From Candidatus Eiseniibacteriota bacterium (GTDB taxonomy: Bacteria; Eisenbacteria; RBG-16-71-46; CAZAMP01): a stretch of 64,000 bases of DNA. Shown here piece by piece: positions 23,481-41,545 of the stretch; positions within the stretch are counted from its first letter, which is position 1, and each line of letters begins with the position of its first letter. Position numbers and translations under genes: made by a program. The DNA lies in assembly GCA_965224245.1 (NCBI GenBank), contig OZ245046.1:544001-608000 (forward strand), written 5' to 3'. Below the pieces are notes generated by a model that was not told the DNA's origin, made no database searches, and worked only from the letters and a program-made list of their open reading frames with translations.

Positions 23481-26063
23481 ATGCAGGCATCATCACGATC
23501 GACATCGCATTGGTTCGAGTGCTCGGAGCTCCGCCACCTACCGACCCGCCGCGCGCGGAATCCGATCGTGGGTGTGCTGGCGATCACGATCCTCGCCGCG
23601 TCGGGCTGCGGGACTCCGGACGACCGGACCCCGACCCCGACCGTGACCGACGACGCGCACAGGCCGCACTTCACGGACGTCACGCGAGCCGCCGGGATCG
23701 ACCACACGCACTCGAAGCCGCGCCTCGATCCGAAGCTCGACAACATCATGCCGTGGGTCTCCAGCGTGGGAGCCGCCGCGGCGGCCGGCGACGTCGACGG
23801 TGACGGATGGATCGATCTCTACGTGACCACGTCTCGCAAGGGCGCCCAGAACCTCCTCTATCGGAACCAGGGCGACGGAACGTTCACGAACGTGGCGAGC
23901 ACGGCCGGCGTCGCCGACGTGAACGACGACGACGGGGTCAGCATCGACTGCATCTTCGGAGACGTCGACGACGACGGATGGACCGATCTCTACCTGGTCC
24001 GGTGGGGTCGCGACCGTCTGTTCCTGAACGACGGAGACGGCACGTTCACCGAGGTCACGCGCGAGCGCTTCACCCGGCGCGACGGCATGCCGGGCACGGA
24101 CTGGGCGAACGGGTGCGGTGCGGTCTTCCTCGACTACGATCGGGACGGCCGTCTGGACATCTACGTCGCGAACTACTTCCGCGACGTCGATCTGTGGGAT
24201 CTGACGTCGACTCGAATCATGCACGACGACTTCGAGCACTCTCGAAACGGGGGAGAGAACTTTCTCTACCACCAGGAGCCCGACGGCACGTTCCGGGAGG
24301 TCGCCTCGTCGCTGGGGATGGAGGATCCCGGCTGGACGCTCGCCGTCGGGTCCGCGGACGTCGACAACGACGGGTGGCTGGACGTCTACTGTGCGAACGA
24401 CTTCGGGCCCGACCAGCTCTTCCTCAACCAGGCGGACGGCACGTTCTCGAACGTGTCGGACGTCGCGCTCGAGTACGATACGAAGAAGGGCATGAACGTC
24501 GACTTCGGAGACGTCAACAACGACGGATGGCTCGACATCTACGTCACGAACATCACCACGGCCGAGTACCTCCGCGAGGGGAACATGCTCTGGCACAACA
24601 ACGGCCCGTCGGACGAGGCGCGCGTCGACTTCGTCGACATCGCCACCGTCTCCGACACGTACGACGGGGGCTGGGGCTGGGGCGCAAAGTTCTTCGACGC
24701 CGACAACGACGGGAGCCTCGACCTCGTGGCCGGAAACGGCTTCATCAGCGCCGGGGAAGGCGAGTACTGGTTCGAGCTGGCCTCCTGGACGGTCATCGCC
24801 GAGGATCCGGCCGACGCCGCCAACTGGCCCGCCATCGGAGAGCGCTCCTTCTCGGGGTTCGAGCCCATTCGATTCTGGCTCAATCGAGAAGGAACCTTCG
24901 TGGAGTCGGCAGCGGCCTCGGGGCTCACGACCCGACGCGACGAACGGGGCGTGGTCACGATCGACTACGACAACGACGGGGATCTGGATCTCTATCTCGC
25001 GAATCAGGGGCAGCCTCCCTGCCTGTACCGCAACGACACACCTGCCCGCCACCACTGGCTCACCGTGGCCCTCGAGGGACGGAGTGACGCGATCGGCGCG
25101 CGTGTGACCGTCGTGACGCCGGACGCCACACGCATCCGGGAGCGCGACGGAGGGAACGGCTACTCCGGTCAGAGCGATCCCCGCATTCACGTCGGGCTGG
25201 GCGAGAACGAGTTGGTCGAGCTCGTGGAGGTCCGCTGGTCGGACGGTGGGCTGCAGTACCTCGAGAATCTGCCGGTGGATCAGATCGTCACCGTCGAGCA
25301 GGATCGGGCGCGCTACGTGGCCAGCGTCCCGCGCGTCGCGGCGATGCCCGAGCGCATCGTGCTCGACACCGCCGAGTCGGAGACGCCGGCGATCGATCCC
25401 GCCGAGCTGGACGAGCTCTTGACGGAGCTCGAGACCGCCATCCGCTCGGGGGACACGACGCTCCGGACCACGAGCCTCTATCGAAACCGCTGCATCACGT
25501 ACGGCGTACACGAGCGTTCGGTGCGCTTCTTCGAGGCGCTCGTGAACGAGCACCCCGACCAGAGCCGCCATCGAGTGAACCTCGCGCTGGCCTACGTGGA
25601 CAAGATCCCGACCTGCGGTGGGGTGGCCGCGGTCGTCAGCAAGGGTACGCTGGCTCGAAAGTCGCTCGACGAGGTGACGCGTGTGATCGATCATGACGGC
25701 GGCACGTGGCTGACACACTACATCCGGGGCATGAACCATCTGCACTGGCCGCGCGCGCTCCGCCACTCCGACGATGCGGCCGCCGAGTTCGAACGCTGCC
25801 TCGAGATCCAGAGCGCGGCGTCGGATCCCCGCGATTACTTCGTACGTACGCATGTAGCACTGGGCGACGCTTATGCCAAGGATGGCCACGCCGATCGCGC
25901 GCGCGCCGTCTGGAGGGCGGCCCTCGAGCACTACCCGGACGCCGAGGCGATCTCGACGCGACTCGGGATCACCGACGACGACGCGCTGCTCGATTTCGTC
26001 GAGGACGCGCGGAGCATCGACCGTCCGATCGATACGGACATGTCGTTCGTCGAGCGGTACTGA
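23481..26063 (+). CDS. CRTAC1/ASPIC-UnbV (enediyne E4-like) FG-GAP repeat protein with C-terminal TPR domain, probable lipoprotein
   Basis: Multiple D-x-D-x-D-G-W-x-D-L-Y repeats, GWGWGAKFFDADNDG, UnbV domain AIGARVTV..GGNGYSGQSD.RIHVGLG..VRW; lipobox-like ILAASGC; helical TPR tail. Exact start uncertain. Confidence 0.85.
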   Translation: MQASSRSTSHWFECSELRHLPTRRARNPIVGVLAITILAASGCGTPDDRTPTPTVTDDAHRPHFTDVTRAAGIDHTHSKPRLDPKLDNIMPWVSSVGAAAAAGDVDGDGWIDLYVTTSRKGAQNLLYRNQGDGTFTNVASTAGVADVNDDDGVSIDCIFGDVDDDGWTDLYLVRWGRDRLFLNDGDGTFTEVTRERFTRRDGMPGTDWANGCGAVFLDYDRDGRLDIYVANYFRDVDLWDLTSTRIMHDDFEHSRNGGENFLYHQEPDGTFREVASSLGMEDPGWTLAVGSADVDNDGWLDVYCANDFGPDQLFLNQADGTFSNVSDVALEYDTKKGMNVDFGDVNNDGWLDIYVTNITTAEYLREGNMLWHNNGPSDEARVDFVDIATVSDTYDGGWGWGAKFFDADNDGSLDLVAGNGFISAGEGEYWFELASWTVIAEDPADAANWPAIGERSFSGFEPIRFWLNREGTFVESAAASGLTTRRDERGVVTIDYDNDGDLDLYLANQGQPPCLYRNDTPARHHWLTVALEGRSDAIGARVTVVTPDATRIRERDGGNGYSGQSDPRIHVGLGENELVELVEVRWSDGGLQYLENLPVDQIVTVEQDRARYVASVPRVAAMPERIVLDTAESETPAIDPAELDELLTELETAIRSGDTTLRTTSLYRNRCITYGVHERSVRFFEALVNEHPDQSRHRVNLALAYVDKIPTCGGVAAVVSKGTLARKSLDEVTRVIDHDGGTWLTHYIRGMNHLHWPRALRHSDDAAAEFERCLEIQSAASDPRDYFVRTHVALGDAYAKDGHADRARAVWRAALEHYPDAEAISTRLGITDDDALLDFVEDARSIDRPIDTDMSFVERY

Positions 26064-26074
26064 CTCCGAGTGCC

Positions 26075-26218
26075 GGGGCGGCAGGCGTGGTGTCTCCTCC
26101 GCTCAAACCTGCCGGCGTGGCCCTCGGGGAAGGTGGGGGTGTCGTTTCGTGCGGGAGCGGTGACGGAGACGTGCTGGTCGCATCCATTCGCTCACCCCGA
26201 CACCACGCCTGCCGCCCC
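26075..26218. repeat. Perfect 20-bp inverted repeat GGGGCGGCAGGCGTGGTGTC (26075-26094 / 26199-26218)
   Basis: Read directly from the sequence; 104-nt spacer; lies between convergent genes. Confidence 0.85.
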
Positions 26219-26219
26219 T

Positions 26220-26360
26220 GTGTCGGGGGATCGACCGGCGCCCGGATGTCGAGGTGTGGGGGATGGTGCGGATCTCCCGGAACTCGGACGCCATCCGATG
26301 TAGAGTGCGCTCCGGCTTGGGCATGACACGGAGGTTGGGGCGGCGGTGTCGGGGGATCGA
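26220..26360. repeat. 15-bp direct repeat GTGTCGGGGGATCGA (26220-26234 and 26346-26360)
   Basis: Read directly from the sequence. Confidence 0.8.
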
Positions 26361-26379
26361 ACGGGGTCGGTCCGAAGAG

Positions 26380-26415
26380 AAATGAAAAGGGGCGATGCCG
26401 GGGTGGCATCGCCCC
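26380..26415 (-). terminator. Rho-independent terminator of the 26438-28003 gene
   Basis: 11-bp stem GGGGCGATGCC/GGCATCGCCCC with a 5-nt loop, followed on the minus strand by TTTTCATTT. Confidence 0.85.
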
Positions 26416-26437
26416 ATCGACACGATGGTCGTGTTCG

Positions 26438-28003
26438 CTACTTCAGCATGACCGCCTGTCGCGTCTCGACGACGTGACCGTCCACGACCAGCTCGTAGAA
26501 GTACGTTCCGGAGGCCAGGAGACGGCCGGATTCGTCGCGACCGTCCCAGTTCACCCGATGCGATCCCGCGCTCACGTGCGCGTCCACGAGCGTGCGCAGG
26601 AGGCGCCCCGTCGCGTCGTAGATGCGGATCTGCGCGGTGCCGGCGTTCTCCAGCACGAAGGGGAGCGCCGTCGAGGGGTGGAACGGGTTCGGCCGAGGCG
26701 CCAGCAGCCGCGTACCGGCGGCGACCCCGGTCTGCGGGCTGGAGAGCGGCGTCACGTCGCCGGTGCCCATGCGGACGGTGCCGACGGTGGACCCGCCCAG
26801 GCCCTCGAGAATGCTGCCCGGTGCACCCTGGAAGTCGATCCGGTAGGCGATGTCGAAGAAGCTGTCGACCTGGAAGTCGCCGCTGGGTAGCTGCGTCAGC
26901 GTCGTGTGTCCCGGGCTCGGGAGACCGAACTCGGTACCGCCGGTGATGCCGAGGAACTCGAAGTCCGGATCTCCGAACAGCTTACCCTGCAGCCGCACCA
27001 TGTCGTTGTCGAACTCCTGGACCGGGTCGCCCGGCGTCCGCGGACCGGTGTGCACCTCGCACTGGATCGGGATGATCATCGTGCGTGCGTAGCCCTCGAG
27101 GTCGCCGGTGCCGTTGAGCGTCATCGTCAGCTGCGACTGGAACTGCTCGATCTCGCCGCCCAGCGTGCCGCCCGGTGTCGCGACCACGTTGAAGAACCGG
27201 TCGTGAATCGGGTCGAACTCGATCGTCGTTCCCGGTGGAAGGCCGTCGATGATCATGTGGACCTGGTCCGGCGACAGGTACTGACAGCCGTCGGGCGGCA
27301 GGCGGACGGTACCCGTCCCGTCGTCGGCGACCACGCACGGGTTGTCGGGAGCCGGCTCGCCGCCCTGCATCCGTACGGTTCCCTCGGTCGGGCCGCCGAA
27401 GCCCTCGAGGATGCTTCCCGGCGCGCCCTGGAACTCGATCCGGTAGGCGATGTCGAAGAAGCTGTCGACGTTGAAGTTGCCGTTGGGGAGCTGCGTGAGC
27501 GTCGTCTGACCGGGGCTCGGGAGGCCGAACGACGAGCCCGCGACGATCTGGATGAAGTCGAAGTCCGGGTCGCCGAAGAGCTGGCCCTGGAGCTGCACCA
27601 TCTCGTTCGGAAACGTCTGCACGGGGTCGCCGGGCGAGCGCGGACCGGTGTGAACCTCGCACGCGATCGGGATCGCCATCGTTCGGGCAAACCCGGCCAG
27701 ATCGCCGGTTCCCGTCATCTGCATGAACAGGAACGACTGGAACTGCTCGACCTCGCCGCCGAGCGACCCGCCCGGGAATCGCACCTCGTTGAAGAACTTC
27801 GCGTGCTCGGCCGCGACGTGGATCTCGGTGCCCGCCGGGAGGTTGCCGATCATGATGTGCAGATCGTCCGGAGAGACGTATCCGCATCCGGGCGGTGGCA
27901 GGTCGACGGTCCCGGTGCCATTGTCGGGTACCTCGCACACGTCCGCTCTCGCGATCGAGCCGACCAGCGCGGCCATACATACGACGCTCCAAAGACGCGA
28001 CAT
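26438..28003 (-). CDS. Secreted protein with two tandem 200-aa repeats (VDSFFDIAYRI motif) and FlgD/T9SS-like tail; function unknown
   Basis: GGAGG RBS; signal MSRLWSVVCMAALVGSIARA; repeats C-x-V-x-D-x-GTGTV-x-LPP-x-GC..EVHTGPR..LFGDPDF..VDSFFDIAYRI at an exact 600-bp offset; tail PNPF..YDATGRLLR..WDGRDESG..SGTYFY. Confidence 0.85.
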   Translation of the reverse strand: MSRLWSVVCMAALVGSIARADVCEVPDNGTGTVDLPPPGCGYVSPDDLHIMIGNLPAGTEIHVAAEHAKFFNEVRFPGGSLGGEVEQFQSFLFMQMTGTGDLAGFARTMAIPIACEVHTGPRSPGDPVQTFPNEMVQLQGQLFGDPDFDFIQIVAGSSFGLPSPGQTTLTQLPNGNFNVDSFFDIAYRIEFQGAPGSILEGFGGPTEGTVRMQGGEPAPDNPCVVADDGTGTVRLPPDGCQYLSPDQVHMIIDGLPPGTTIEFDPIHDRFFNVVATPGGTLGGEIEQFQSQLTMTLNGTGDLEGYARTMIIPIQCEVHTGPRTPGDPVQEFDNDMVRLQGKLFGDPDFEFLGITGGTEFGLPSPGHTTLTQLPSGDFQVDSFFDIAYRIDFQGAPGSILEGLGGSTVGTVRMGTGDVTPLSSPQTGVAAGTRLLAPRPNPFHPSTALPFVLENAGTAQIRIYDATGRLLRTLVDAHVSAGSHRVNWDGRDESGRLLASGTYFYELVVDGHVVETRQAVMLK

Positions 28004-28287
28004 CGTCTAACCTCCTGCCGTCGACACCGCGCCGTTCGTCTCTCGTACGGCGAACGATCTCCGGCCAACGGTTTTGTAGGATGATGCGGGCGCATCACGC
28101 GAACGCGATTCGATCCGGTCCGAATGCCCTCGACCGGCTCGAAGGACGGCCACGATCCGAGGAAGCGGGTGACCCCAAAAAACGGCCATCGGGAAACTCT
28201 CATCGAAATGATACTGTGTTGCCCGGAAACTGGACAAGCACGTGCTGAGGATCTTGCCCCGCGAGGACCGAGATCGATGATCCTGGC

Positions 28288-30978
28288 ATGAAATCGCGCC
28301 ATGCGCCGCCGACGCGTCCACGCCCGCTCCCGTGGGGGTGGAGCCTCTCGCATCCCACGCTTATTCTCCTGTTCGTCGCGGTTGTGACCGCGTTTCTGGG
28401 AGCCGGGCTGGGTCGGCTGCGGCTGCGGACCGATGGACACGCCCTGATTCCGGCCGAGCGGGCCGAGATCGTCGAGGACGCCGAGATCCGTGAGCGGTTC
28501 GGCGTTCGGGATCCCGTGATCGTCCTGGTGCGGTCGTCGAGCCCGGAGGGGATCTACACGGTCCCGGCGCTGGCGGCGCTGGTCGAGCTCTCGGACTCGC
28601 TGTCGGCGCTGGCCGGGCCCGGGTCCGTGATGAGCCTGGCCACCGAGCGCGGCGATCGCTTCGAGCGGGGCACGCTCAGGTATCGCCGCTTTCTGTCACC
28701 ACTGCCGGCATCCGAGGGGGCGATCGACACGCTTCGCTCCGACCTGGCCGCGCTCGCCCTGCCGGTGGGGACGCTCGTCTCCGACGACGGAGCCGGCGCC
28801 GCCATCTACGTGGACGTCGATCCGGGGGCGGAGCGGAGCGCGTTCCTGGCCCGGGTCATGGACCTGGTCGCCCGACACCGCACCGAGGATCTACGGCTCG
28901 ACGTCATCGGGGCTCCGATCGCGGAGAGCCTGCTCGGGCTGCACATCCTCGCCGACCTTGGATTGCCCGGGGCGGCGCGCGCCCACGCCGACGACGTCGA
29001 CCCCGATCGGCCCGCCGCCGGGTGGGAGCGGACACGTGACGTGATCACGCGGCCCGGCCTCGTTCCGATCGCCATCGTCATCATGTTCGTCGTGTTCGTG
29101 GTCGCGTTCCGGAGTGTTCCCGCGGCAGTTCTGCCCTTGATCGAGGTGCTCGCCTGTCTGATCTCGGTGCTCGGGCTCATGGGCTGGATGGGCGTGCCGT
29201 TCTACCTGACGATCGCGCCGATGCCCGTGATCCTGACCATGATGGGGGTCGCGGACGAGGTCCATCTGTTCGCACGTCATGCGCGCCTCCGCACCGAAGA
29301 CCCCAGTGCCGACCCGAGGGAGGTCGTCGACGCCACGATGCGCGACCTCGTGCGACCGGTCGTGTGGACCTCGGTGACGACGGCGATCGGGTTCGCGTCG
29401 TTCGCGCTGTCGCCGATCGCACCGGTGCGTGCGTTCGGGGTGTTCACGGCGCTGGGCGTGATGTATTGCCTGGGATGGTCGCTTCTGGTCACGCCGGCGC
29501 TCCTCGTGCGTCTACCCGCGTCACAGGTGGGAGATCCACGGCTGCCATCGGCGCCGCTCGATCGGCTGGGTCGTCTGGTCACCGGTCACCCGAAGGCGAC
29601 GCTGGGGGTGGCCGGGCTCGTCGTGCTCCTGTCGATACCGGGACTGGTGCGGCTGAAGGTGCAGGACAGCTGGATCTCGGGCTTCTCGGAGCGGAGCCGG
29701 TTTCGATCCGCGACCGAATGGTACGACGCGCACTTCCTCGGGATGCACCGGCTCTTGATCGAGGTCCGGGGCGAGCCCGTCGACGTGGTCGGCGCGATCC
29801 CCGTAGACCGACTCGAGCGGCATCGGCTGACGCTGCCGTCCGGGAGCGTCTCCGATCCCGGGCGGCTGGTCGGCTGCCGGATCGCGCTGTCCCCGGACGG
29901 CTGGCGTCACGACGAACCCGAGCAACGCTGGGAGTCGTGGATCGTGCTCGCCGAGGAGACCGCCGACGGCCTCGTGCTGATGACGCCCCGCCGCGATGGG
30001 TCTGCGCGGATGCGCTTCGGGGATCAGCTCACGGGCGTGGTGAGATACGAGATCCGGTCGCGGACGTTCTCCTGGCACGAGCACCTCCGCCGTGTCGAGG
30101 CGTTCGAGGCGGTCGTGGCATCGCGGCGGGACGACACCGTGGGGGGCGTGATCGGCGCCGCCGCCCACGTTGCCACCGCCGACTACGTGGTGACGCGTCG
30201 CGATTCCACCGCACGCGAGGTTCCTGACGACCCCGATCGCGTGGGCTGGCTGCTAAGCCAGTACGGGCGCGTTCACGGCGAGCGCCGTCTCCGCGCCATC
30301 GTGGATCCCGACCTCGAGCGCGCGCTCGTGACCGTCTTCATGCGCGCCGCGAACTACCGGGCCACCGCGTCGTTGATGCGGGAGACCCGGGCCTACGCGC
30401 GAGAGCATCTCGAGCCCGCCGGGCTGTCGATCCGATTCGCCGGTGACGTCGCGGTGAGCCAGACGCTGATCGAGTCCATCGTCAGCACCCAGCGACGCTC
30501 TCTGGGGCTCTCGCTCGTGGGGATCCTGGTCGTGCTCGTGGGCCTGATGCGATCGCCGGTGCGCGCCGTCATGGGCGTGCTGCCATCGGCGATGGCCGTC
30601 GGCATCGGGCTGGCCATGCTGGGCGCGACCGGGCGCTCGCTCGGGGTGTCCACGTCCATGTTCGCCGGCATGACGCTCGGTGTGGGCGTCGACTTCTCCA
30701 TTCACCTGCTGGCGGCGCATGCGCGGGCGGTCGGGACCCGTGCCGAGCGGATCCGGCTCGCACTGGCCGATGCCGGTCCCGCGATGACGATCGATGCGCT
30801 GGCGGTTGCGCTCGGGTTCGGCGTGCTGTGTGTGTCGGGGGTGCCGGCCAACGTCGCGCTGGGGTCCCTGGCCCTGGTGTGCATTCTGACCTGCCTGGCC
30901 GTCACGCTCGGGGTGGTGCCGGCGCTCCTGTCCCTCGGTGCCGGCGGGAATGGACCGGAGGACGGGTCGAGCGCATAG
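28288..30978 (+). CDS. MMPL/RND-family membrane transporter
   Basis: Two halves, each with 1+5 TM segments and a large extracytoplasmic loop; GVADEVHL and GVGVDFSIHL motifs; TTAIGFASF. Confidence 0.85.
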   Translation: MKSRHAPPTRPRPLPWGWSLSHPTLILLFVAVVTAFLGAGLGRLRLRTDGHALIPAERAEIVEDAEIRERFGVRDPVIVLVRSSSPEGIYTVPALAALVELSDSLSALAGPGSVMSLATERGDRFERGTLRYRRFLSPLPASEGAIDTLRSDLAALALPVGTLVSDDGAGAAIYVDVDPGAERSAFLARVMDLVARHRTEDLRLDVIGAPIAESLLGLHILADLGLPGAARAHADDVDPDRPAAGWERTRDVITRPGLVPIAIVIMFVVFVVAFRSVPAAVLPLIEVLACLISVLGLMGWMGVPFYLTIAPMPVILTMMGVADEVHLFARHARLRTEDPSADPREVVDATMRDLVRPVVWTSVTTAIGFASFALSPIAPVRAFGVFTALGVMYCLGWSLLVTPALLVRLPASQVGDPRLPSAPLDRLGRLVTGHPKATLGVAGLVVLLSIPGLVRLKVQDSWISGFSERSRFRSATEWYDAHFLGMHRLLIEVRGEPVDVVGAIPVDRLERHRLTLPSGSVSDPGRLVGCRIALSPDGWRHDEPEQRWESWIVLAEETADGLVLMTPRRDGSARMRFGDQLTGVVRYEIRSRTFSWHEHLRRVEAFEAVVASRRDDTVGGVIGAAAHVATADYVVTRRDSTAREVPDDPDRVGWLLSQYGRVHGERRLRAIVDPDLERALVTVFMRAANYRATASLMRETRAYAREHLEPAGLSIRFAGDVAVSQTLIESIVSTQRRSLGLSLVGILVVLVGLMRSPVRAVMGVLPSAMAVGIGLAMLGATGRSLGVSTSMFAGMTLGVGVDFSIHLLAAHARAVGTRAERIRLALADAGPAMTIDALAVALGFGVLCVSGVPANVALGSLALVCILTCLAVTLGVVPALLSLGAGGNGPEDGSSA

Positions 30979-31132
30979 GGACCTGGTATCACCGACGCGA
31001 TCGCGTTTATACTGATCTTTCCGTTCGGCGGTCCCTTTTTGGCGGCCCGTCCCGTGCCGGCGGCGTCGGCGCTCGACCCGGGAACCATCACGAACGGTCA
31101 TCTCGCTGGCCCGCGAGGAGCAGGTTTCACAC

Positions 31133-32101
31133 GTGAAGACGCTTCCGACGCTGCGCCGGCGGCTCTTCGGCATCTCCAGCGCCGAAGCCGAGTTCGCGCG
31201 ACGCGGTTTTGAGCCGACCACCGGCGCCAAGCAACGCGTCCTCGAGACCGCCGGCGCGACGTTCATCGAGGGATACAACCGTGCGATCGCGCACGGACGC
31301 GGCACCGGCGTGGCCGACCTTCTCTTCGACGTCGATCCGAGCCGGCTGGGGTTCGCGTTCGAAGGAGCCGCCATGGCGCTCGCACTTCTCGACCGGCTCC
31401 TGCCGTGGCGCGGCACTCGCCTCCAGACCCTGCTCGCCGGAGACGGCGATCCCCACCGGTACATGGTGTTCGTCGGTGCGGGCTGGGCGCTGGCCAGGCT
31501 GCGTCGATCGCCGCGTTCGCTTCTGGGCCTCGATCCCATTCTAGGCTGGCTCGCCGTGGACGGAATGGGATTCCACGACGCGTACTTCCACCCGGATCGG
31601 ACGATCGGCCGGGCCGAGCGGTCGGCGCGCGCGATGGGTGTCGCCGCTCACGTGTTCGACCAGGGTGTCGGACGGGCGATGTGGTTCGTGTGCGGGGCGA
31701 ACGTCACCCGGACGTCGTCGACCGTGTCGGGATTCTCGGCCGAGCGGCACGCCGATCTGTGGAGTGGGGTCGGGCTCGCGGCCACGTACGCCGGTGCGGT
31801 CGATCGTGACGAGCTCCTCGCGTTGCGCGAGGCGTCGGGAGAGCATGCCTCGCATCTCGGTCAGGGATCGGCGTTCGCCGCCAAGGCGCGGATGCGAGCC
31901 GCGAATCCGACGCCGCACGTCGACGCGGCGACCGACGTGCTCTGCGGGCTCTCGTGCGGAGCCGCTGCCGATCTGACCGACGAGGCGCTGTCGGCCACCC
32001 TCGCGATCGTCGATCGATCCGATCGTGAGGACGGCGAGCCCGCATACGAGCGGTGGCGAGCCGGGGTGAGGTCGCGCCTGGAAGCGAGTGCGAGAGTATG
32101 A
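31133..32101 (+). CDS. UnbL/DUF1702 family protein (enediyne E3/E2-like)
   Basis: F.RRGF, GFAFEGAAMAL, H.YM..VGAGWALARL, WLAVDG.GFH.AYF, DQGVGRAMWF, DLWSGVGLAATYAG, PAYERWR; GTG start with GAGGAG RBS; stop overlaps the PKS ATG. Confidence 0.9.
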   Translation: MKTLPTLRRRLFGISSAEAEFARRGFEPTTGAKQRVLETAGATFIEGYNRAIAHGRGTGVADLLFDVDPSRLGFAFEGAAMALALLDRLLPWRGTRLQTLLAGDGDPHRYMVFVGAGWALARLRRSPRSLLGLDPILGWLAVDGMGFHDAYFHPDRTIGRAERSARAMGVAAHVFDQGVGRAMWFVCGANVTRTSSTVSGFSAERHADLWSGVGLAATYAGAVDRDELLALREASGEHASHLGQGSAFAAKARMRAANPTPHVDAATDVLCGLSCGAAADLTDEALSATLAIVDRSDREDGEPAYERWRAGVRSRLEASARV

Positions 32102-35100
32102 GCCGGTCCTCGACGAGACCGCTCCAGCCCCGGGGCTCGACACCGGGCGGGGCGGCCATCGCGGTCGTGGGCATGGCCTGCCGTTACCCGGATGCGGACT
32201 CTCCTCAGGCGCTCTGGGAGAACGTCCTCGCCCAGCGCCAGTCGTTCCGGCGCATGCCGCGCGAGCGCCTGGACCTCGACGACCACTACTCCGACGACCG
32301 CGGGGCGCCCGACCGCACCTACGCCACCATGGCCGCCGTGCTGGAGGGCTATGCGTTCGATCGCGTCGCGCATCGCGTCGCCGGCTCGACCTATCGCTCG
32401 GCCGACCTGGCACACTGGCTCGCCCTGGACGTGGCGACCGATGCGCTCGCGGACGCGGGCCTGCCCGCCGGGGACGGGCTTCCGCGCGATACCACCGGCG
32501 TTCTGATCGGCAACTCCCTGACCGGCGAGTTCTCCCGCGCTGCGACGCTCCGGGTGCGGTGGCCGTACGTGAAGCGCGTGGTCGGCGCGGCACTCGCCGG
32601 CGGCGGCTGGTCGGACGAGGACGTCTCGTCGTTCCTCCGCCGGCTGGAGGTGTCGTACAAGGCTCCGTTCGCCCCCGTCGGGGACGAGACGCTCGCCGGC
32701 GGGCTCTCCAACACGATCGCCGGACGCATCTGCAACGCGTTCGACTTCAAGGGCGGTGGCTACACGGTCGACGGCGCCTGCAGCTCGTCGCTCCTGGCCA
32801 TCGCCAACGCGTGCTCGGCGCTGACGGTGGGCGACCTCGACGCGGCGATCGTGGGGGGCGTGGACCTGAGCCTGGATCCGTTCGAGATCGTCGGGTTCGC
32901 GAAGGTGGGCGCGCTCGCACCGGATCGGATGCGCGTCTACGATGCACGCTCCGCCGGATTCTGGCCGGGCGAGGGATCGGGCATGCTGGTCCTGATGCGG
33001 CTGGCGGACGCGATCGCGACCGGGCGGCGTGTCCTGGGCATCATCCGTGGCTGGGGCATCTCGTCCGACGGCACCGGCGGCATCACCCGGCCCGAGGTGG
33101 CCGGGCAGCGCCTGGCCATCGCGCGCGCCTACGCCCGTGCGGGCTACGGAATCGACACGCTCGGCTACGTCGAGGGGCACGGAACCGGAACCACGGTCGG
33201 CGACGCCACCGAGATCGACGTCCTCGGCGGCGCGCTGCGAGAGGCGGGGGCAGGGCGTCGCGTGGCCCTCGGCTCGATCAAGGCCAACATCGGGCACACG
33301 AAGGCGGCCGCCGGCGCCGCGGGCTTCCTGCGCGCGCTCCTGGCCGTGGGACACGGCATCGTGCCGCCGCACGCCGGCACACGTACGCCCCATCCGTCGC
33401 TCGAGGCCGGCGACGCGCCGCTCCGTCTTCCGAGAGAGCCGGAGGGTTGGGACGCCGCCTCGCGCCGCGCCGGCGTCAGCTCGATGGGCTTCGGCGGCAT
33501 CAACGTGCACATCACGCTGGAGGCAGACGGAAGCGACGCTCCGCGCGGGCGTCGCCTCGCGCCGCGTACCGCGCGACTCGCACGCACGCCGCAGGACGTC
33601 GAGCTGTTCGGGATCACCGCCCCGACCCGGGAGGCGCTCGGACGTCGGCTCGAGTCGCTGCGCTCGCAGTGCGAGACGCTCGCATTCTCCGAGCTACCCG
33701 ACCTTGCGGCCACGCTGGCGCGGGAAGCCGCACGGGGGCCGCACCGCGTCGCGTTGATCGCCGACTCGCCGGCCGAGCTCGCCCGCCGCATCGACGACTC
33801 GCTGGCACGGCTCTCGATGGACGGCCCGGTGGTGGACGGATCGGGTGGGCTCTTCATCGGGTCCGGACCCGCACCGCGCATCGGCTTTCTCTTTCCGGGA
33901 CAGGGCTCGCCGTCCCGGCCCGACGGCGGCTCGGTGCGCCGGCGCTTCGAGCGCGCGGCGGCCCTCTACGAGCGCGTGGGCAGAGACGGGCTGTTCCCCG
34001 CCGTCGAGGATCCCACCGACACCGCCCTGGCACAGCCGGCCATCCTCGCGGCGACGCTGGTCACGCTCGAGGTGCTGGATGCGGTCGGGGTGCGGGCACG
34101 CGCCGCGCTCGGGCACAGCCTGGGCGAGATCGCGGCGCTGGCGTGGGGGGGCGCGCTGTCGCACGAGGGTGCGCTCCGACTGTCGGCGGCGCGCGGGCGC
34201 GCAATGGCGAGCGTGCCCGGACCCGCCGGCGCGATGGCGTCGATCGCCGCGTCTCCGGAGGACGTCGCCGCGTGGCTCGCGGAGCTCGATCTCGCGGCCG
34301 GCGCCACCGGCGACGCCACGGCACCCGGAGCGGTGCCGGATCGGGGAGGCGCCGTAGGTCACGGGGTCGTCATTGCCGGCTACAATGGTCCCGCGCGAAC
34401 CGTCGTGTCCGGTCCGAGCGAGGCGGTGGACGCGTTCGTCGAGCGGGTGACCGCACGCGGCGCCACCGCCACGCGGCTTCGCGTCTCGCACGCGTTTCAT
34501 TCCGGGCTGATGGCGCCCGCGAGCACCGGCCTCGCGGCGGCCATCGCCGCCGAGTCGTGGCGGCCGTGCTCGCGCGTGGTCGTGTCCACGGTCACCGGCG
34601 ACCGCGTTCCCGAGCGTGCGGACGTCGGCGACCTGCTGCGTCGCCAGCTCACCGAGCCGGTTCGGTTCTCCGATGCCCTTTCCGTGCTCGCGCGCGACGT
34701 GGATCTCCTGATCGAGGTCGGACCCGGGACGTCGCTCGCGACCCTGGCCGCAGCGCAGGTCTCGACACCGGTGGTGGCCACCGACGGATGTGGGGATTCG
34801 CTGCGCGGACTTCTGGGCGCGATCGGTGCGGCGTGGGCGCTCGGGGCATCCGTGGATCTCGAGTCGCTCTTCGGCGACCGCGCCGTGCGGCCGTTCGATG
34901 GGCATCGTCCCCACGCGTTTCTGGCGAACCCGTGTGAGTCCGCGCCCCGACCCGGTGCGCCGGACGGGTCGCCGGTCACGCCTTCCCACGCCGGGACGCT
35001 GCCCGCGCCCGCGATTCCGGCGGCGGCGAGTCCGCCGGGACACACCGGCGGGGGGGGCGCGACGCTCGACGAACGAGTCGATGATGCCCGCGATGAAGGG

Positions 35101-38100
35101 CTGCCGGACGAGAGCGGCACGGGTCCCGCTTCGGCCCTCGACGTGGTGCGCACGCTGGTCGCCACTCGCGCCGAGCTGCCGCTCGAGTCCATCGGCGAGG
35201 ACGATCACGTGCTCGACGACCTCCGGCTCAACTCCATCGTCGTGGGTGAGATCGTCACCAACGCCGCGCGCCGCCTCGGACTCGACGCCCCGACGGCGCC
35301 GGCCGAGTTCGCCGACTCGACCGTCGGCGAGATCGCGGCCGCCCTGGCGGCGCTTCTGGAAGACGGTCCGCGCGGACGCGATCGATCGCTCGGGCTCGCG
35401 CCGGACGACGAGATCCCCGAGGGCGTCTCGACGTGGTTTCGGACCTTCGCCACCGAGTGGGTCGAGGCGCCGGCGCCCGCGAGCGCCCCGCTACCGGACG
35501 TCCGGTGGGAGGTGCTGGGGGACCCGACCGATGGGCTGGTGGCCGAGCTCACCGCGCGTCTCGGAGAGGCCGGCTCCGGCGATGCCGAGGCACCCGGTGG
35601 AACGCTCGTCGTCCTTCCGGCACGGGTGTCCGACGACGACGTCGTCGCCGCCGTGGATGCGGCCGGCGCGCACCTCGGACGCGGAGGAACGCACTTCGTT
35701 CTGGTCCAGCGCGCGGACACGCTGGCGAGCCTCGCCCGGACGCTCCACCTCGAGGACCGGCGGGTCACGACCCGCATCGTCACCGTGCCCGACGGCTCGC
35801 CCCGCTCCGCCCGCGCGATCCTGGCGGAGATCGCCGGAGACGGGCAAATCGTCGAGGCGCGCTACGAGTCCGATGGGCGCCGGGTCGTTCCCGTTCTCGG
35901 GCACGTTCCGATCGGGCGCGATGGAGCGAGCGCCGATGGGTCCGGCACGGTCGAGCCGGCCGCCGGGCTCGGTGCCGACGACGTCCTGCTCGTGACCGGC
36001 GGAGGCAAAGGCATCGCCGCCGAGTGCGCGCTCGCGATCGCCGCCAAGACCCGGACCGCGCTGCTGCTGATCGGACGCTCGGATCCGGCACACGACCCCG
36101 TGCTCGCGGGAAACCTGGCGCGGATCGCCGGCGCCGGGTGTCGCGCACACTACGCGCGCGCCGACGTCACCGACCCGGCGGCGGTCGCGAACGCGGTGGC
36201 CGAGGGAGCCCGCGTGCTCGGCCCGATCACGGGCGTCCTTCACGGGGCGGGGCGAAACGAGCCGTCGCGGATTCGCATGCTCGATCGAGACCGGGTGCTC
36301 GCGACGCTCGCCCCGAAGACGCGGGGCCTCGAGCACGTGCTCGCGTCCGTGGACCCCTCGTCGCTTCGGCTGCTGGTGACGTTCGGATCGATCATCGCCA
36401 CCGCCGGTCTGGCCGGAGAGGCCGACTATGCGATCGCCAACGAGCGCCTGGCGGCGATGACCGCGGCGTTCGGGCACGCCAATCCGACGTGTCGCTGCGT
36501 GTGTCTGGGATGGTCCATCTGGTCGGGAACCGGAATGGGAGAGCGTCTGGGCCGCGTCGAGACGCTCGCGCGTCAGGGGGTCGTTGCGATCACGCCCGAC
36601 GCCGGAGTCGACGTCCTCGGGCGTATCCTGCGAGCACCGGCGCTTCCCACGCACCTCGTGGTGACCGGCCGGTTCGGAGACCCGCCGACCGTTCGAACCG
36701 AGCCCGGCGAGCTGCCGCTCCGGCGTTTCCTGGAGCGGCCGCGTGTGCACGTCCCCGGCGTCGAGCTCGTCGCCGACGCGACCGTCGATCCCGCGCACGA
36801 TCCGTATCTGGACGACCACGTTCTCGACGGGGTCCGGGTGTTCCCCGCCGTGATGGGCCTCGAGGCGATGGCCCAGGTCGCGATGGCGCTGGCGAGGCGC
36901 GACGACCCGCCGGCCTTCCACGACGTCCGGTTCGATCGTGCCGTGACGATTCCCGAGACGGGTGCGACGTTGCGGATCGCCGCACTCGCGGACGTCGACG
37001 GCGCACACCCGGGCGCGGGTGTGATTCGTGTCGTCGTCAGGTCCTCCGAGACGTCGTACGCCGTCGATCACTTCACCGCACGCTGCCGGTTCACCGACGC
37101 GCCGCCGCCCGACGTGGATCCGATCGCGAACGGACGCCCGGCCCGGTTCGATCTCGGGGATCGTCTGTACCGCGAGATCCTGTTCCAGCGCGGTCGCTTC
37201 GCCCGCGCCGGAGGGTACGACGACGTGCAGGCGCGACGTTGCGTCGGCCGGCTCACGGCCGCGCCGCCGGTCGGCTGGTTCGGTGCGTTTCTGCCCCAGG
37301 CGCTCGTGCTGGGCGATCCCGGCCGTCGCGATGCCATGCTCCACGGGATCCAGGTCAGCGTTCCGCACCGCCGGCTGCTTCCGGTGTCGGCGACCGAGAT
37401 CGTGTTCCGGCCGTGCGGCGGCGCCGCGGAGCCCGGCGCGCCTCGGAGCGCATCGGACGCGGCGGTGTTCCGGGCGGTCGAGACCGCGCACCGGGGGGCC
37501 GACTACACCTACGACGTCGACGCCGGCGAGGAGCGCGGAGTCGTCGTCGAGTGCTGGCGCGGACTCGTCTTCCGGGCCGTGGGCCCGATACCCCTGCCCG
37601 AGACGTGGCCCCGCCCCTTGCTCGGCTCGTATCTCGAGCGGCGGATCGCCGAGACGTGGCCCGACCGCGTCTCGCACGTCGCGGTGGATCGATCCGGGAC
37701 GTCGACCGAGGACATCCTGCGCGCCGCGATCGCGGCGTCGACACACGTGCACCGGCGGCCCGACGGGAAGCCCGTGCTGTCGAACGGGACGCCGGTGGCG
37801 ATCTCGACGCACGGTCCGCTCGCGCTCGCGGTCGTCGCGGCCGATCCGGCACCGGTCGGGTGTGACGTCGAGGCGGTCGTCCCGCGTGACCGAGACGCCT
37901 GGCGGGCGCTCGTCGGGGATCGCGGCTGCGAGGTCGCGGAGCTCGTGTCCATGCGTGTCCCGGAGCCGTTCGACGCGGCGGCGACGCGCGTGTGGTGCAT
38001 CAAGGAGTCCGTGCGCAAGGCGGGGGGAACCTGGAATGAGGTGCTGAGCGTGACGTCGGTCGACGATGCCGCCTGGGTTCGCTTCAGGGCCGGATCGTTC

Positions 38101-38235
38101 CAGGTGGCGACGCTGCGCGTCGTGCTGGAGCCGGACCCGGATCTCGATGCGGGCGGCACAGGGTGCGGCGGTCCGATGATCGTCGCGGTGCTCGTCGAAG
38201 AACGCGGCTCGGAGGCGGCGCGTGAAGGCGTATGA
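32098..38235 (+). CDS. pksE: Enediyne-type iterative type I polyketide synthase (KS-AT-ACP-KR-DH-PPTase)
   Basis: KS (GNSLTGEFSRA, TVDGACSSSL, EGHGTGT, NIGHTKAAAG), AT (GHSLG, HAFH), central ACP (DDLRLNSIVVGEIV), KR (VTGGGKGI, ADYAIANE), DH (YLDDHVLDG..FPAVMGLEAMAQ), PPTase (GCDVE, WCIKESVRKA); ATG at 32098. Confidence 0.95.
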   Translation: MSRSSTRPLQPRGSTPGGAAIAVVGMACRYPDADSPQALWENVLAQRQSFRRMPRERLDLDDHYSDDRGAPDRTYATMAAVLEGYAFDRVAHRVAGSTYRSADLAHWLALDVATDALADAGLPAGDGLPRDTTGVLIGNSLTGEFSRAATLRVRWPYVKRVVGAALAGGGWSDEDVSSFLRRLEVSYKAPFAPVGDETLAGGLSNTIAGRICNAFDFKGGGYTVDGACSSSLLAIANACSALTVGDLDAAIVGGVDLSLDPFEIVGFAKVGALAPDRMRVYDARSAGFWPGEGSGMLVLMRLADAIATGRRVLGIIRGWGISSDGTGGITRPEVAGQRLAIARAYARAGYGIDTLGYVEGHGTGTTVGDATEIDVLGGALREAGAGRRVALGSIKANIGHTKAAAGAAGFLRALLAVGHGIVPPHAGTRTPHPSLEAGDAPLRLPREPEGWDAASRRAGVSSMGFGGINVHITLEADGSDAPRGRRLAPRTARLARTPQDVELFGITAPTREALGRRLESLRSQCETLAFSELPDLAATLAREAARGPHRVALIADSPAELARRIDDSLARLSMDGPVVDGSGGLFIGSGPAPRIGFLFPGQGSPSRPDGGSVRRRFERAAALYERVGRDGLFPAVEDPTDTALAQPAILAATLVTLEVLDAVGVRARAALGHSLGEIAALAWGGALSHEGALRLSAARGRAMASVPGPAGAMASIAASPEDVAAWLAELDLAAGATGDATAPGAVPDRGGAVGHGVVIAGYNGPARTVVSGPSEAVDAFVERVTARGATATRLRVSHAFHSGLMAPASTGLAAAIAAESWRPCSRVVVSTVTGDRVPERADVGDLLRRQLTEPVRFSDALSVLARDVDLLIEVGPGTSLATLAAAQVSTPVVATDGCGDSLRGLLGAIGAAWALGASVDLESLFGDRAVRPFDGHRPHAFLANPCESAPRPGAPDGSPVTPSHAGTLPAPAIPAAASPPGHTGGGGATLDERVDDARDEGLPDESGTGPASALDVVRTLVATRAELPLESIGEDDHVLDDLRLNSIVVGEIVTNAARRLGLDAPTAPAEFADSTVGEIAAALAALLEDGPRGRDRSLGLAPDDEIPEGVSTWFRTFATEWVEAPAPASAPLPDVRWEVLGDPTDGLVAELTARLGEAGSGDAEAPGGTLVVLPARVSDDDVVAAVDAAGAHLGRGGTHFVLVQRADTLASLARTLHLEDRRVTTRIVTVPDGSPRSARAILAEIAGDGQIVEARYESDGRRVVPVLGHVPIGRDGASADGSGTVEPAAGLGADDVLLVTGGGKGIAAECALAIAAKTRTALLLIGRSDPAHDPVLAGNLARIAGAGCRAHYARADVTDPAAVANAVAEGARVLGPITGVLHGAGRNEPSRIRMLDRDRVLATLAPKTRGLEHVLASVDPSSLRLLVTFGSIIATAGLAGEADYAIANERLAAMTAAFGHANPTCRCVCLGWSIWSGTGMGERLGRVETLARQGVVAITPDAGVDVLGRILRAPALPTHLVVTGRFGDPPTVRTEPGELPLRRFLERPRVHVPGVELVADATVDPAHDPYLDDHVLDGVRVFPAVMGLEAMAQVAMALARRDDPPAFHDVRFDRAVTIPETGATLRIAALADVDGAHPGAGVIRVVVRSSETSYAVDHFTARCRFTDAPPPDVDPIANGRPARFDLGDRLYREILFQRGRFARAGGYDDVQARRCVGRLTAAPPVGWFGAFLPQALVLGDPGRRDAMLHGIQVSVPHRRLLPVSATEIVFRPCGGAAEPGAPRSASDAAVFRAVETAHRGADYTYDVDAGEERGVVVECWRGLVFRAVGPIPLPETWPRPLLGSYLERRIAETWPDRVSHVAVDRSGTSTEDILRAAIAASTHVHRRPDGKPVLSNGTPVAISTHGPLALAVVAADPAPVGCDVEAVVPRDRDAWRALVGDRGCEVAELVSMRVPEPFDAAATRVWCIKESVRKAGGTWNEVLSVTSVDDAAWVRFRAGSFQVATLRVVLEPDPDLDAGGTGCGGPMIVAVLVEERGSEAAREGV

Positions 38236-38647
38236 GTACCGGCACCTCGTCGGCTTCGCGGAGACGAACGTCGTGGGGAACGTCTACTTCTCCCACCACG
38301 TCGCCTGGCAGGGGCGCTGTCGCGAGGCGTTCCTCCGCGAGCACTGTCCGTCGTTGCTCGACGAGCTCACGTCGGGGCTCGCGCTGGTCACGCTCAGCTG
38401 CCGTTGCGAGTACGTGTCCGAGGTGCTCGCGCTCGAAGAGGTGATCGTGCGCATGACCCTCGCGGAGTCGTCGCAGAACCGCGTCGCGATGCGGTTCGAC
38501 TACGTGGTCGTGCGGGATGGCACCGAGCGGATCGTGGCCCGCGGCGGGCAGGAGATCGCGTGCATGCGCCGGACCGCCGGCGGCCTCGAGGCCACGAGCG
38601 TTCCCGTCGAGCTGTCCCGGGCGCTGGAGCCGTACCGCTCGCGCTGA
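38222..38647 (+). CDS. Hotdog-fold thioesterase, enediyne E10/E7 type
   Basis: YEYRH.VGF.ETN.VGNVY...WQGRCRE.FL signature; overlaps the PKSE end. Confidence 0.92.
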   Translation: MKAYEYRHLVGFAETNVVGNVYFSHHVAWQGRCREAFLREHCPSLLDELTSGLALVTLSCRCEYVSEVLALEEVIVRMTLAESSQNRVAMRFDYVVVRDGTERIVARGGQEIACMRRTAGGLEATSVPVELSRALEPYRSR

Positions 38648-40924: not shown

Positions 40925-41344
40925 CTACCACCGACCGAGAGGCACCCGGATGCGACCCGGCCCGGTCAGGAGCAGCGCGACGTAGACCCCCAGAAGCTCG
41001 AGCGCGTGCGAGGCCCCCTTCCACCCGGCCCCTGACGCGTCCTCGGGCAGACTCAGGTGCCGGATGACGGCCACGAGCATCGTGAACGCGAGCATCGCCG
41101 CCGACGGTCGGAACAGAACGCCGAGCACCAGGAGGGCCGAGCAGACCACCTCGGCGAACATGGCCATGAAGCCCCAGAAGACCGGTGCGAACCGGATGCC
41201 GAGGTTCGCCATCTGGCCGCCCAGTCCTTCCCACCGCTCGGGACCTCCCTGGAGCTTGCCCCAGCCGTGAAAGACGAGCATCGACAGACCGATCACCAGC
41301 CTCAACACGAACAGACCGATGTCGCGGCGCCGGGCGTTCTCCAT
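40925..41344 (-). CDS. DoxX family membrane protein
   Basis: GLFVLRLVIG...HGWGKL, AEVV..LLVLG..R, LLLTGPGR; GGAGG RBS. Confidence 0.88.
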   Translation of the reverse strand: MENARRRDIGLFVLRLVIGLSMLVFHGWGKLQGGPERWEGLGGQMANLGIRFAPVFWGFMAMFAEVVCSALLVLGVLFRPSAAMLAFTMLVAVIRHLSLPEDASGAGWKGASHALELLGVYVALLLTGPGRIRVPLGRW

Positions 41345-41545
41345 GTGGTGTCCTCCAGGGGGCGTCGGGCCGGCGAGTGGACGCCGGCAATCGAATCGCG
41401 GACGGCGCCGGCCCGTTCGCGTCCGGACCGACCACCGAGTTCGGCGGAGTCTAGTCGGCACGGGTCACGGTGGCAAACGACGCCGCGCGAGACGGGTGTT
41501 GCGCGCGCTCGTACTTGCTTGTGTTCGACCGCGGTCCCGCGCACC

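Follow-up and report, generated by a model that had tools for sequence, protein, structure and literature searches.

An MMPL transporter gene heads an E5-less enediyne-type PKSE locus in a Candidatus Eiseniibacteriota genome

Gene content and order of the locus

The DNA analyzed here, hereafter the window, is a 64,000-nucleotide stretch of a Candidatus Eiseniibacteriota genome (assembly GCA_965224245.1, contig OZ245046.1, positions 544,001 to 608,000 of the forward strand), and the locus in question is a run of genes in which an MMPL family transporter is followed by E3, the enediyne-type polyketide synthase (PKS) PKSE and the thioesterase E10, with no gene for the membrane protein E5 (UnbU). 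The window has ~70% G+C, and true genes were chosen via third-position GC and matches to Pfam and NCBIfam models. The first gene of the run (28288-30978, plus strand) was assigned by both libraries as an MMPL/HAE-type RND transporter of 896 aa, and is followed after a gap of 155 bp by the gene of E3/UnbL (31133-32101, plus strand), which matches DUF1702 (PF08012) at 345.8 bits over the full length and is the single DUF1702 copy in the whole genome. The PKSE gene (32053-38235, plus strand), which has the Pfam domain order KS-AT-ACP-KR-DH-PPTase of an iterative enediyne-type synthase, overlaps the E3 end, and the start of the gene for an E10-type hotdog thioesterase (38222-38647, plus strand; PF13279, 42 bits) overlaps the PKSE stop by 14 nt. 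No terminator-like site was found between the MMPL and E3 genes in a scan of positions 25900-32300. Upstream of the run, a gene for a secreted (beta-barrel) repeat protein that ends in a FlgD_ig or type IX secretion system (T9SS)-type sorting domain (26438-28003, minus strand) is divergent from the MMPL gene and convergent with an E4-type gene (23481-26063, plus strand), whose product, according to Pfam, combines FG-GAP repeats, a UnbV/ASPIC domain and a TPR extension at the C-terminus. The intergenic gaps in the locus are 375, 285 and 155 bp. Based on these coordinates, strands, domains and overlaps, the missing MMPL-E3 terminator and the signal peptides described below, the sequence-only reading was correct on gene content and order: the MMPL gene, an intact ORF (open reading frame), leads the PKSE operon, with E3, PKSE and E10 downstream on the same strand.

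The same reading regarded the MMPL gene as the only polytopic membrane gene of the locus, which holds for the conserved core and fails for the wider neighborhood, as a PHO4 gene and a DoxX gene (40925-41461) both lie 2-3 kb downstream of that core. Of the two, DoxX was the one searched for in the 80 E3-anchored loci introduced below, and tblastn matched it in none of them. Each of the seven genes is an undisrupted ORF showing the GC bias at third positions that coding sequence of this genome should have. Between 25900 and 32300, the one terminator-like site is a hairpin of 11 pairs followed by a T-run (26389-26415, minus strand) between the E4-type and beta-barrel genes; since 1.8 such sites are expected in shuffled sequence, it is weak evidence alone.

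Absence of E5 from the genome

In PMC4480864, the five genes E10/E/E5/E4/E3 are described as common to all known enediyne loci; compared with this minimal cassette, the window holds PKSE, E10, E3 and an E4-type gene and lacks E5. E5 has no named library model and was derived from gene context in E3-anchored loci. These came from a scan with an E3 alignment as the query and one genome per species, of which the best 80 of at least 359 relatives were used. In most of the 80 loci the order was E3-E4-x-PKSE-E10, with x a ~300-aa membrane protein having a weak NQR2/RnfD/RnfE match, and phmmer seeded with one copy of x, taken as E5, gave 73 matches in the 80 loci. The window PKSE shared 42-47% identity over ~2000 aa with the PKSE of most of these loci, and the window E10 shared 46-57% identity over ~138 aa with the gene after PKSE in most of the others. 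Using thresholds that we set ourselves (PKSE, >300 bits; canonical E5, at least 250 bits; divergent E5, 55-250 bits), PKSE was detected in 65 of the 80 loci, and among these 65, E5 was canonical in 58, divergent in three (L062, L072 and L077) and not in view in four (L009, L056, L057 and L075).

Searches of the window itself were empty. No window ORF of at least 30 aa matched a profile of 68 E5 genes from other PKSE loci (hmmsearch --max), and tblastn with seven E5 or E5-like proteins (word size 2, E<=50) yielded chance matches only, with a best E of 0.03, in place of an E5 remnant. The profile search was then extended over the genome, which comprises 6.94 Mb in 27 contigs, is 97.4% complete and carries the window within a 6.45-Mb contig. 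Among 59,396 six-frame genome ORFs, the canonical E5 profile found one 72-bit match (C1:4429698-4430768) and nothing else below E=2, compared with 417-605 bits for true E5 genes. With a profile including divergent E5 forms, the same site scored 99.7 bits and a true RnfD 23 bits, while divergent E5-like genes scored 234-304 bits with the same kind of profile when whole, and 152 bits for the L060 copy that is cut by a contig end. A tree placed canonical and divergent E5 together in a clade (98/100, branch length 3.0) that excluded the DUF2330-linked group to which the genomic RnfD-like protein belongs; with 72-100 bits against >400 bits for canonical E5, and a position outside the E5 clade, this protein was rejected as the missing E5. 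Therefore, the genome profile search, the placement of the DUF2330-linked paralogue and the lack of a remnant in the window together indicate, at the level of sequence comparison, that E5 is absent from the window genome, of whose marker content 2.6% is missing. The sequence-only reading, which had noted that no E5-like ORF fits the intergenic gaps and had named a whole-genome profile search for UnbU as the check, is borne out on both counts.

The RnfD-like gene overlaps a DUF2330 gene and adjoins an ECF sigma factor gene (G000:C1:4429797-4432056, in the window genome; L082:9798-12057). Orthologues of the pair occur in G132, G160 and G161 (51-53% and 55-62% identity, respectively), and G132 and G160 hold both the pair and a separate E5-like gene (276-306 bits). 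The RnfD-like/DUF2330 pair is a separate family that could be misread as E5.

Whole-genome searches followed for the four PKSE loci in which E5 was not in view. An E5-like gene lies elsewhere in two of the genomes, G208 and G209 (240-244 bits), and none was found in G206 and G207, for which completeness is not given. Judged by these profile searches, the absence of E5 beside PKSE is a feature that recurs in two other unrelated assemblies. Neither G206 nor G207 holds the MMPL clade of the window; both have weak HAE3 paralogues, in pieces of 92-150 bits vs. at least 730 bits for clade members. A DUF1702 survey of 401 genomes of the G207 phylum recovered G207 alone and no further E5-less cases. 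The deep branches of the E3 tree were not resolved, showing neither a single E5 loss nor several.

The MMPL transporter and its gene neighborhoods

The 896-aa protein matched Pfam MMPL (PF03176) at 72.8 bits against a cut-off of 20.5, and also two further models, Patched SSD and the sterol-sensing domain. Hydropathy analysis put the first transmembrane (TM) segment at residues 24-42 and two TM bundles at 256-456 and 738-881, which are separated by a first loop of 213 aa and a second of 281 aa. From an alignment of 42 rows, AlphaFold predicted a 12-TM protein with a pLDDT (predicted local distance difference test score) of 90.8 and a pTM (predicted template modeling score) of 0.88, and the top Foldseek matches of this model were MmpL4, MmpL5, MmpL3, HpnN and NPC1-type proteins, at 12-17% identity, E-values from 2.5e-23 (MmpL4, 9gi0_B) to 2e-19 (HpnN, 5khn_B) and query-normalised TM-scores of 0.55-0.65. 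The charged residues D323-E324-x-H326 in TM4 and D802/H806 in TM10 are kept, each being the majority residue in 35-41 of the 42 clade rows. The Pfam score, the 12-TM fold, the two large outside loops and these TM4/TM10 residues place the protein in the MMPL family of the RND superfamily, and the confident 12-TM model, the fold matches to exporters of lipids and siderophores and the retained residues suggest that it is competent as a transporter. Three curated NCBIfam subfamilies did not fit, as the best match, HAE3 (TIGR00921), reached 152.6 of the 351.9 bits required, the HpnN models TIGR03480 and NF052374 69.2 of 751.85 and 23.8 of 1100 bits, and the actII/MMPL model 76 of 875 bits. Compared with the MmpL/HpnN-type exporters (MmpL3, MmpL4/5 and HpnN), the window protein has the same 12-TM fold, two periplasmic domains and TM4/TM10 charged residues, but differs in sequence, in staying below the NCBIfam cut-offs and in a family-specific, beta-rich subdomain of the second periplasmic domain. 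The long insertion in the second loop that the sequence-only reading had noticed is real in that loop 2 exceeds loop 1 and holds this beta-rich subdomain at ~487-590 in the predicted structure; however, it is not peculiar to this gene and is a family-wide feature, because the extra length is common to 42/42 aligned members, with a clade median of 287 aa.

The distribution of this MMPL clade was then surveyed in 206 species genomes of the phylum, counting MMPL at E<=1e-30. E3 was above the cut-off in five genomes (G000, which is the window genome, G046, G132, G160 and G161) and the MMPL clade was present in four (G000, G132, G046, where there are two copies, and G091, which is 79% complete and has a fragment), in three of which it lies beside PKSE. 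In G046, the MMPL gene is followed divergently by a beta-barrel protein gene, E3, E4, canonical E5, PKSE and E10, and in G132, which is the same DNA as L062, an E4-type gene and a TPR+E5-like gene are followed on the opposite strand by E3, PKSE, E10 and MMPL. With the MMPL as anchor, a metagenome scan recovered 79 loci, many of them on short contigs; PKSE and/or E10 accompanied it in 15, a distant DUF1702 (92-122 bits) with two ketosynthase (KS) genes in 11, a beta-barrel gene in nine and a UnbV-type protein in three, the remainder having none of these genes. MMPL-UnbV pairs with no PKSE in view were found in L162, L105, L118 and G207:C279. An MMPL tree was built from 62 rows, of which 23 have short flanks. 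In it, the loci with a distant DUF1702 and KS genes formed a supported clade (99), and nine of the 14 PKSE-linked rows fell into one clade with weaker support (91).

These data bear on whether the transporter is a general envelope-lipid transporter that adjoins PKSE by chance. Such an accident would agree with the unrelated neighbors of the long-flanked clade members L097, L112 and L121 and with MMPL scores far below the curated HpnN and HAE3 cut-offs, yet two genes that are as rare as 4/206 and 5/206 in the phylum stand side by side in three genomes, the linkage to PKSE/E10 or to distant DUF1702 and KS genes recurs in many lineages, and the tree groups the linked loci, so that we hold coincidence to be very improbable. 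On this neighborhood evidence, the MMPL clade is tied to PKSE/DUF1702 pathways, though not exclusively, and phylogenetic profiling, the further check named in the sequence-only reading, found it linked to PKSE in relatives.

As a separate observation, the MMPL gene is divergent to a distant DUF1702 gene (94-104 bits, Pfam), with no PKSE, in L113:4746-12709 and L109:5756-12853, where two ketosynthases were confirmed in L113 and one was confirmed by Pfam in L109; the other loci combining a distant DUF1702 with MMPL are L094, L096, L098, L107, L116, L125, L136, L158 and L163.

Next, the co-occurrence of the MMPL with E5 was examined. Seven MMPL-linked PKSE loci have a visible region upstream of PKSE, the other twelve stopping short of the expected E5 position. 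E5 or an E5-like gene co-occurs with the MMPL in six of the seven, as canonical E5 in L142 (gene order E3-E4-E5-PKSE-E10-MMPL), L147 (identical to L032), L101 (truncated where its contig ends), L085/G046 and L037, and as a divergent E5-like gene in L062/G132; the window alone lacks E5. Since MMPL and E5 occur together elsewhere, the MMPL is probably not an E5 substitute, and since G206 and G207, where no E5 was found, lack the clade, MMPL presence and E5 absence are uncorrelated in this sample. This contradicts the inference preferred in the sequence-only reading, that the MMPL replaces E5, whereas its association of the MMPL with the PKSE genes holds. In a replacement, the MMPL would serve as the membrane platform for E3 and pass the polyene on to the E4-type protein outside the cytoplasm. 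The genome without E5, the MMPL as sole polytopic membrane protein of the operon, placed 155 bp upstream of E3, and the direct MMPL-DUF1702 neighbors in the window, in L032/L147 and in the 11 distant DUF1702+KS loci would fit that role, as would a fusion of an E5-like domain with E3 in L072, which suggests that E3 needs a membrane partner. Beyond the co-occurrence and the weak HAE3 paralogues of G206 and G207, however, the two proteins have unrelated folds (RND vs. RnfD/NqrB-like) and the MMPL gene follows E10, away from E3, in L142, L062, L155 and L124. We therefore consider replacement quite unlikely.

The fusion in question is a 672-aa ORF on a Planctomycetia metagenome-assembled genome contig (L072:9005-11023, plus strand), directly upstream of PKSE, in which the E5-like match covers aa 54-320 and a full E3/DUF1702 aa 358-691 in stop-to-stop frame numbering. 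As a natural fusion, it argues that E3 may work on E5 at the membrane. E3 could by extension be a membrane-docked enzyme with a swappable partner, which would be E5 canonically, with the MMPL family as a second dedicated partner or outlet that takes over the whole membrane step in E5-less genomes. This idea, which we rate as unlikely, would account for the DUF1702 neighbors of the MMPL both beside PKSE and beside a KS/KS pair, synthase contexts that are unrelated to each other. If true, an exported polyene lipid would come from the four-gene core MMPL-E3-PKSE-E10, which would be a simpler and tractable system for the roles of E3 and E4.

Envelope proteins and a proposed route for the product

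The two proteins encoded upstream of the MMPL both bear export signals. The E4-type protein matched Pfam FG-GAP_3 (160.8 bits), UnbV_ASPIC (74.9 bits) and TPR (residues 789-829), and its N-terminus has a hydrophobic segment and a lipoprotein-type signal peptide with a cysteine after ...LAASG. No other protein of the genome comes close to it as a match to canonical E4 (194-221 bits vs. at most 69 for paralogues), and its gene lies two genes from E3, across the opposite-strand gene, and is not E3-adjacent. It belongs to a divergent subgroup, with ~30% identity to the E4 encoded in loci of canonical order, and this subgroup is common to the window, L009, L062, L072, L077, L060, L162 and G207 (39-60% identity). 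The beta-barrel protein has a signal peptide and matched FlgD_ig (Pfam, 44.3 bits) and TIGR04183 Por_Secre_tail (24.9 bits); its homologues adjoining the MMPL clade in the 9/79 metagenome loci and in G046 are 57-62% identical. In PMC8725005, DynF of the dynemicin cluster is described as an eight-stranded beta-barrel with bound palmitate.

From what is shown, namely which genes are present, that E5 is missing and which genes occur together, we favor, with moderate confidence, a variant E5-less PKSE polyene cassette of the phylum Candidatus Eiseniibacteriota with an accessory lipid-type MMPL exporter, for which we infer a transport direction, a substrate, a hand-over to outside proteins and a product as follows. 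Synthesis and release of a conjugated polyene would most likely fall to PKSE and E10, a known activity of actinomycete PKSE/TE (thioesterase) pairs, and E3 may act on this polyene, either in the cytoplasm or at the membrane. As a proton-driven lipid-type RND exporter in an accessory role, the MMPL would move the hydrophobic product outwards from the inner membrane to the envelope. The recipients there could be the UnbV-TPR lipoprotein of E4 type and the secreted beta-barrel protein. The lipoprotein signal of E4 and the recurrent MMPL-UnbV pairs make it plausible that the MMPL serves an extracytoplasmic E4, and the linkage of exporter, E4-type lipoprotein and beta-barrel protein suggests a product that would be located in the envelope rather than a cytotoxic warhead. 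Given that E5 is absent and that the MMPL would not be its substitute, the pathway probably ends in a lipid or pigment that derives from a polyene and is exported, and that need not be an enediyne. The chemistry may differ from that of enediyne producers or, as in the alternative offered by the sequence-only reading, end at an earlier point.

Several observations weigh against this variant cassette. The clade is an uncommon accessory, occurring in two of the 65 E3-anchored PKSE loci (three with the cut L037 copy), and the window MMPL is a long branch whose placement in a basal group with the PKSE-linked copies of its own phylum was not resolved. Nor is the clade PKSE-exclusive, as seven MMPL loci with at least 8 kb on both flanks lack PKSE, E10 and DUF1702 (L137 and L157 among them having weak beta-barrel matches of 75 and 59 bits), and the second MMPL of G046 (C8:96972-99635; L088) has a 7-10 kb flank without PKSE, E3, E10, E5, beta-barrel or UnbV-like genes. 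Because E5 is otherwise nearly universal, being in 61/65 PKSE loci and elsewhere in two more genomes, its loss could mean a crippled pathway. The cassette would then be decaying, with a heptaene shunt product or nothing useful made and the MMPL kept as a retained neighbor. The gene order gives this some substance, in that an E5-like gene directly follows the UnbV and TPR parts in G160, L077, L072 and L062, and the window frame stops after TPR. The intact, coding-biased frames of all seven genes, the lack of any E5 remnant, the conserved charged residues of the MMPL and the recurrence of PKSE without detectable E5 in G206 and G207 speak against it, and decay is in our judgment an unlikely account.

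In the literature searched, neither a PKSE-MMPL link nor an E5-less cassette was found, though one genome-neighborhood survey outside the coverage may describe variants. The cited papers report that PKSE with a TE yields a heptaene (PMC4480864), that E3, E4 and E5 are conserved genes of unknown function (PMC9992847 and PMC4480864), and that enediyne-type KS domains occur in many non-actinomycete phyla with no known products (PMC10308959). The window resembles the actinomycete minimal enediyne cassette (UnbL/UnbV/UnbU/PKSE/TEBC) in having the same PKSE domain order, an overlapping E10, E3 directly upstream and an E4-type gene nearby. It differs in lacking E5, in having a divergent, TPR-tailed and displaced E4, in the added MMPL and secreted beta-barrel genes, and in its host, a non-actinomycete of a group without a reported enediyne (PMC10308959).

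The G132/L062, G160, L077 and L072 loci are like the window in that E3 abuts PKSE, the E4 is of the same subgroup (39-47% identity) and a TPR module is present, and G132/L062 also has the same MMPL clade, after E10; in these loci an E5-like gene comes right after TPR, fused to TPR in L062 and to E3 in L072, whereas the window has TPR on E4 and no E5-like gene. Aryl-polyene clusters have an export module with an RND-type exporter and LolA/LolB-like carriers. The window may be likened to it in logic only, as a polyene synthase encoded alongside an exporter of MMPL type and a putative lipid-binding carrier that is small and secreted; the aryl-polyene synthase is type II and that of the window an iterative type I PKSE, and the putative carrier here is a repeat beta-barrel with a T9SS-type tail. 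The intact E5-less cassette and its relatives with divergent or E3-fused E5-like genes form a comparative series on what E5 contributes, and caution that E5 alone is unsuitable as a probe for PKSE loci outside actinomycetes.

The TPR module was observed to change partners. It is fused to the UnbV (E4-type) protein in the window, L162 and G207, with no E5-like gene after it, is free in G160, L077, L072 and G206, and forms the N-terminus of the E5-like protein in L062; in G160, L077 and L072, the UnbV protein, the TPR protein and the E5-like protein are encoded by three consecutive genes. The sites of the module are 25400-26063 in the window, L062:5829-7484, L087:10552-11583, L077:15908-17011 and L171:12158-13180. 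An apparent UnbV-TPR fusion in G206 (a 996-aa open frame) was rejected, as a TAA stop, three bases and then an ATG lie between the genes, so that the fusion is limited to the window, L162 and G207. Downstream of the separate UnbV and TPR genes of G206 come genes for a TPR-FG-GAP-UnbV protein and an ABC exporter, and no E5-like gene. This ~1200-aa TPR-FG-GAP-UnbV protein adjoins the E4-type gene in both G206 and G207 (L171:6565-12112; L172:196-8881), its further neighbor being, in G206, the ABC exporter and, in G207, a distant MMPL of 795 aa. Finally, a ~2300-aa open frame at G000:C1:6130728-6137669 is the second-best match in the window genome to the E4-type protein, at 656 bits.

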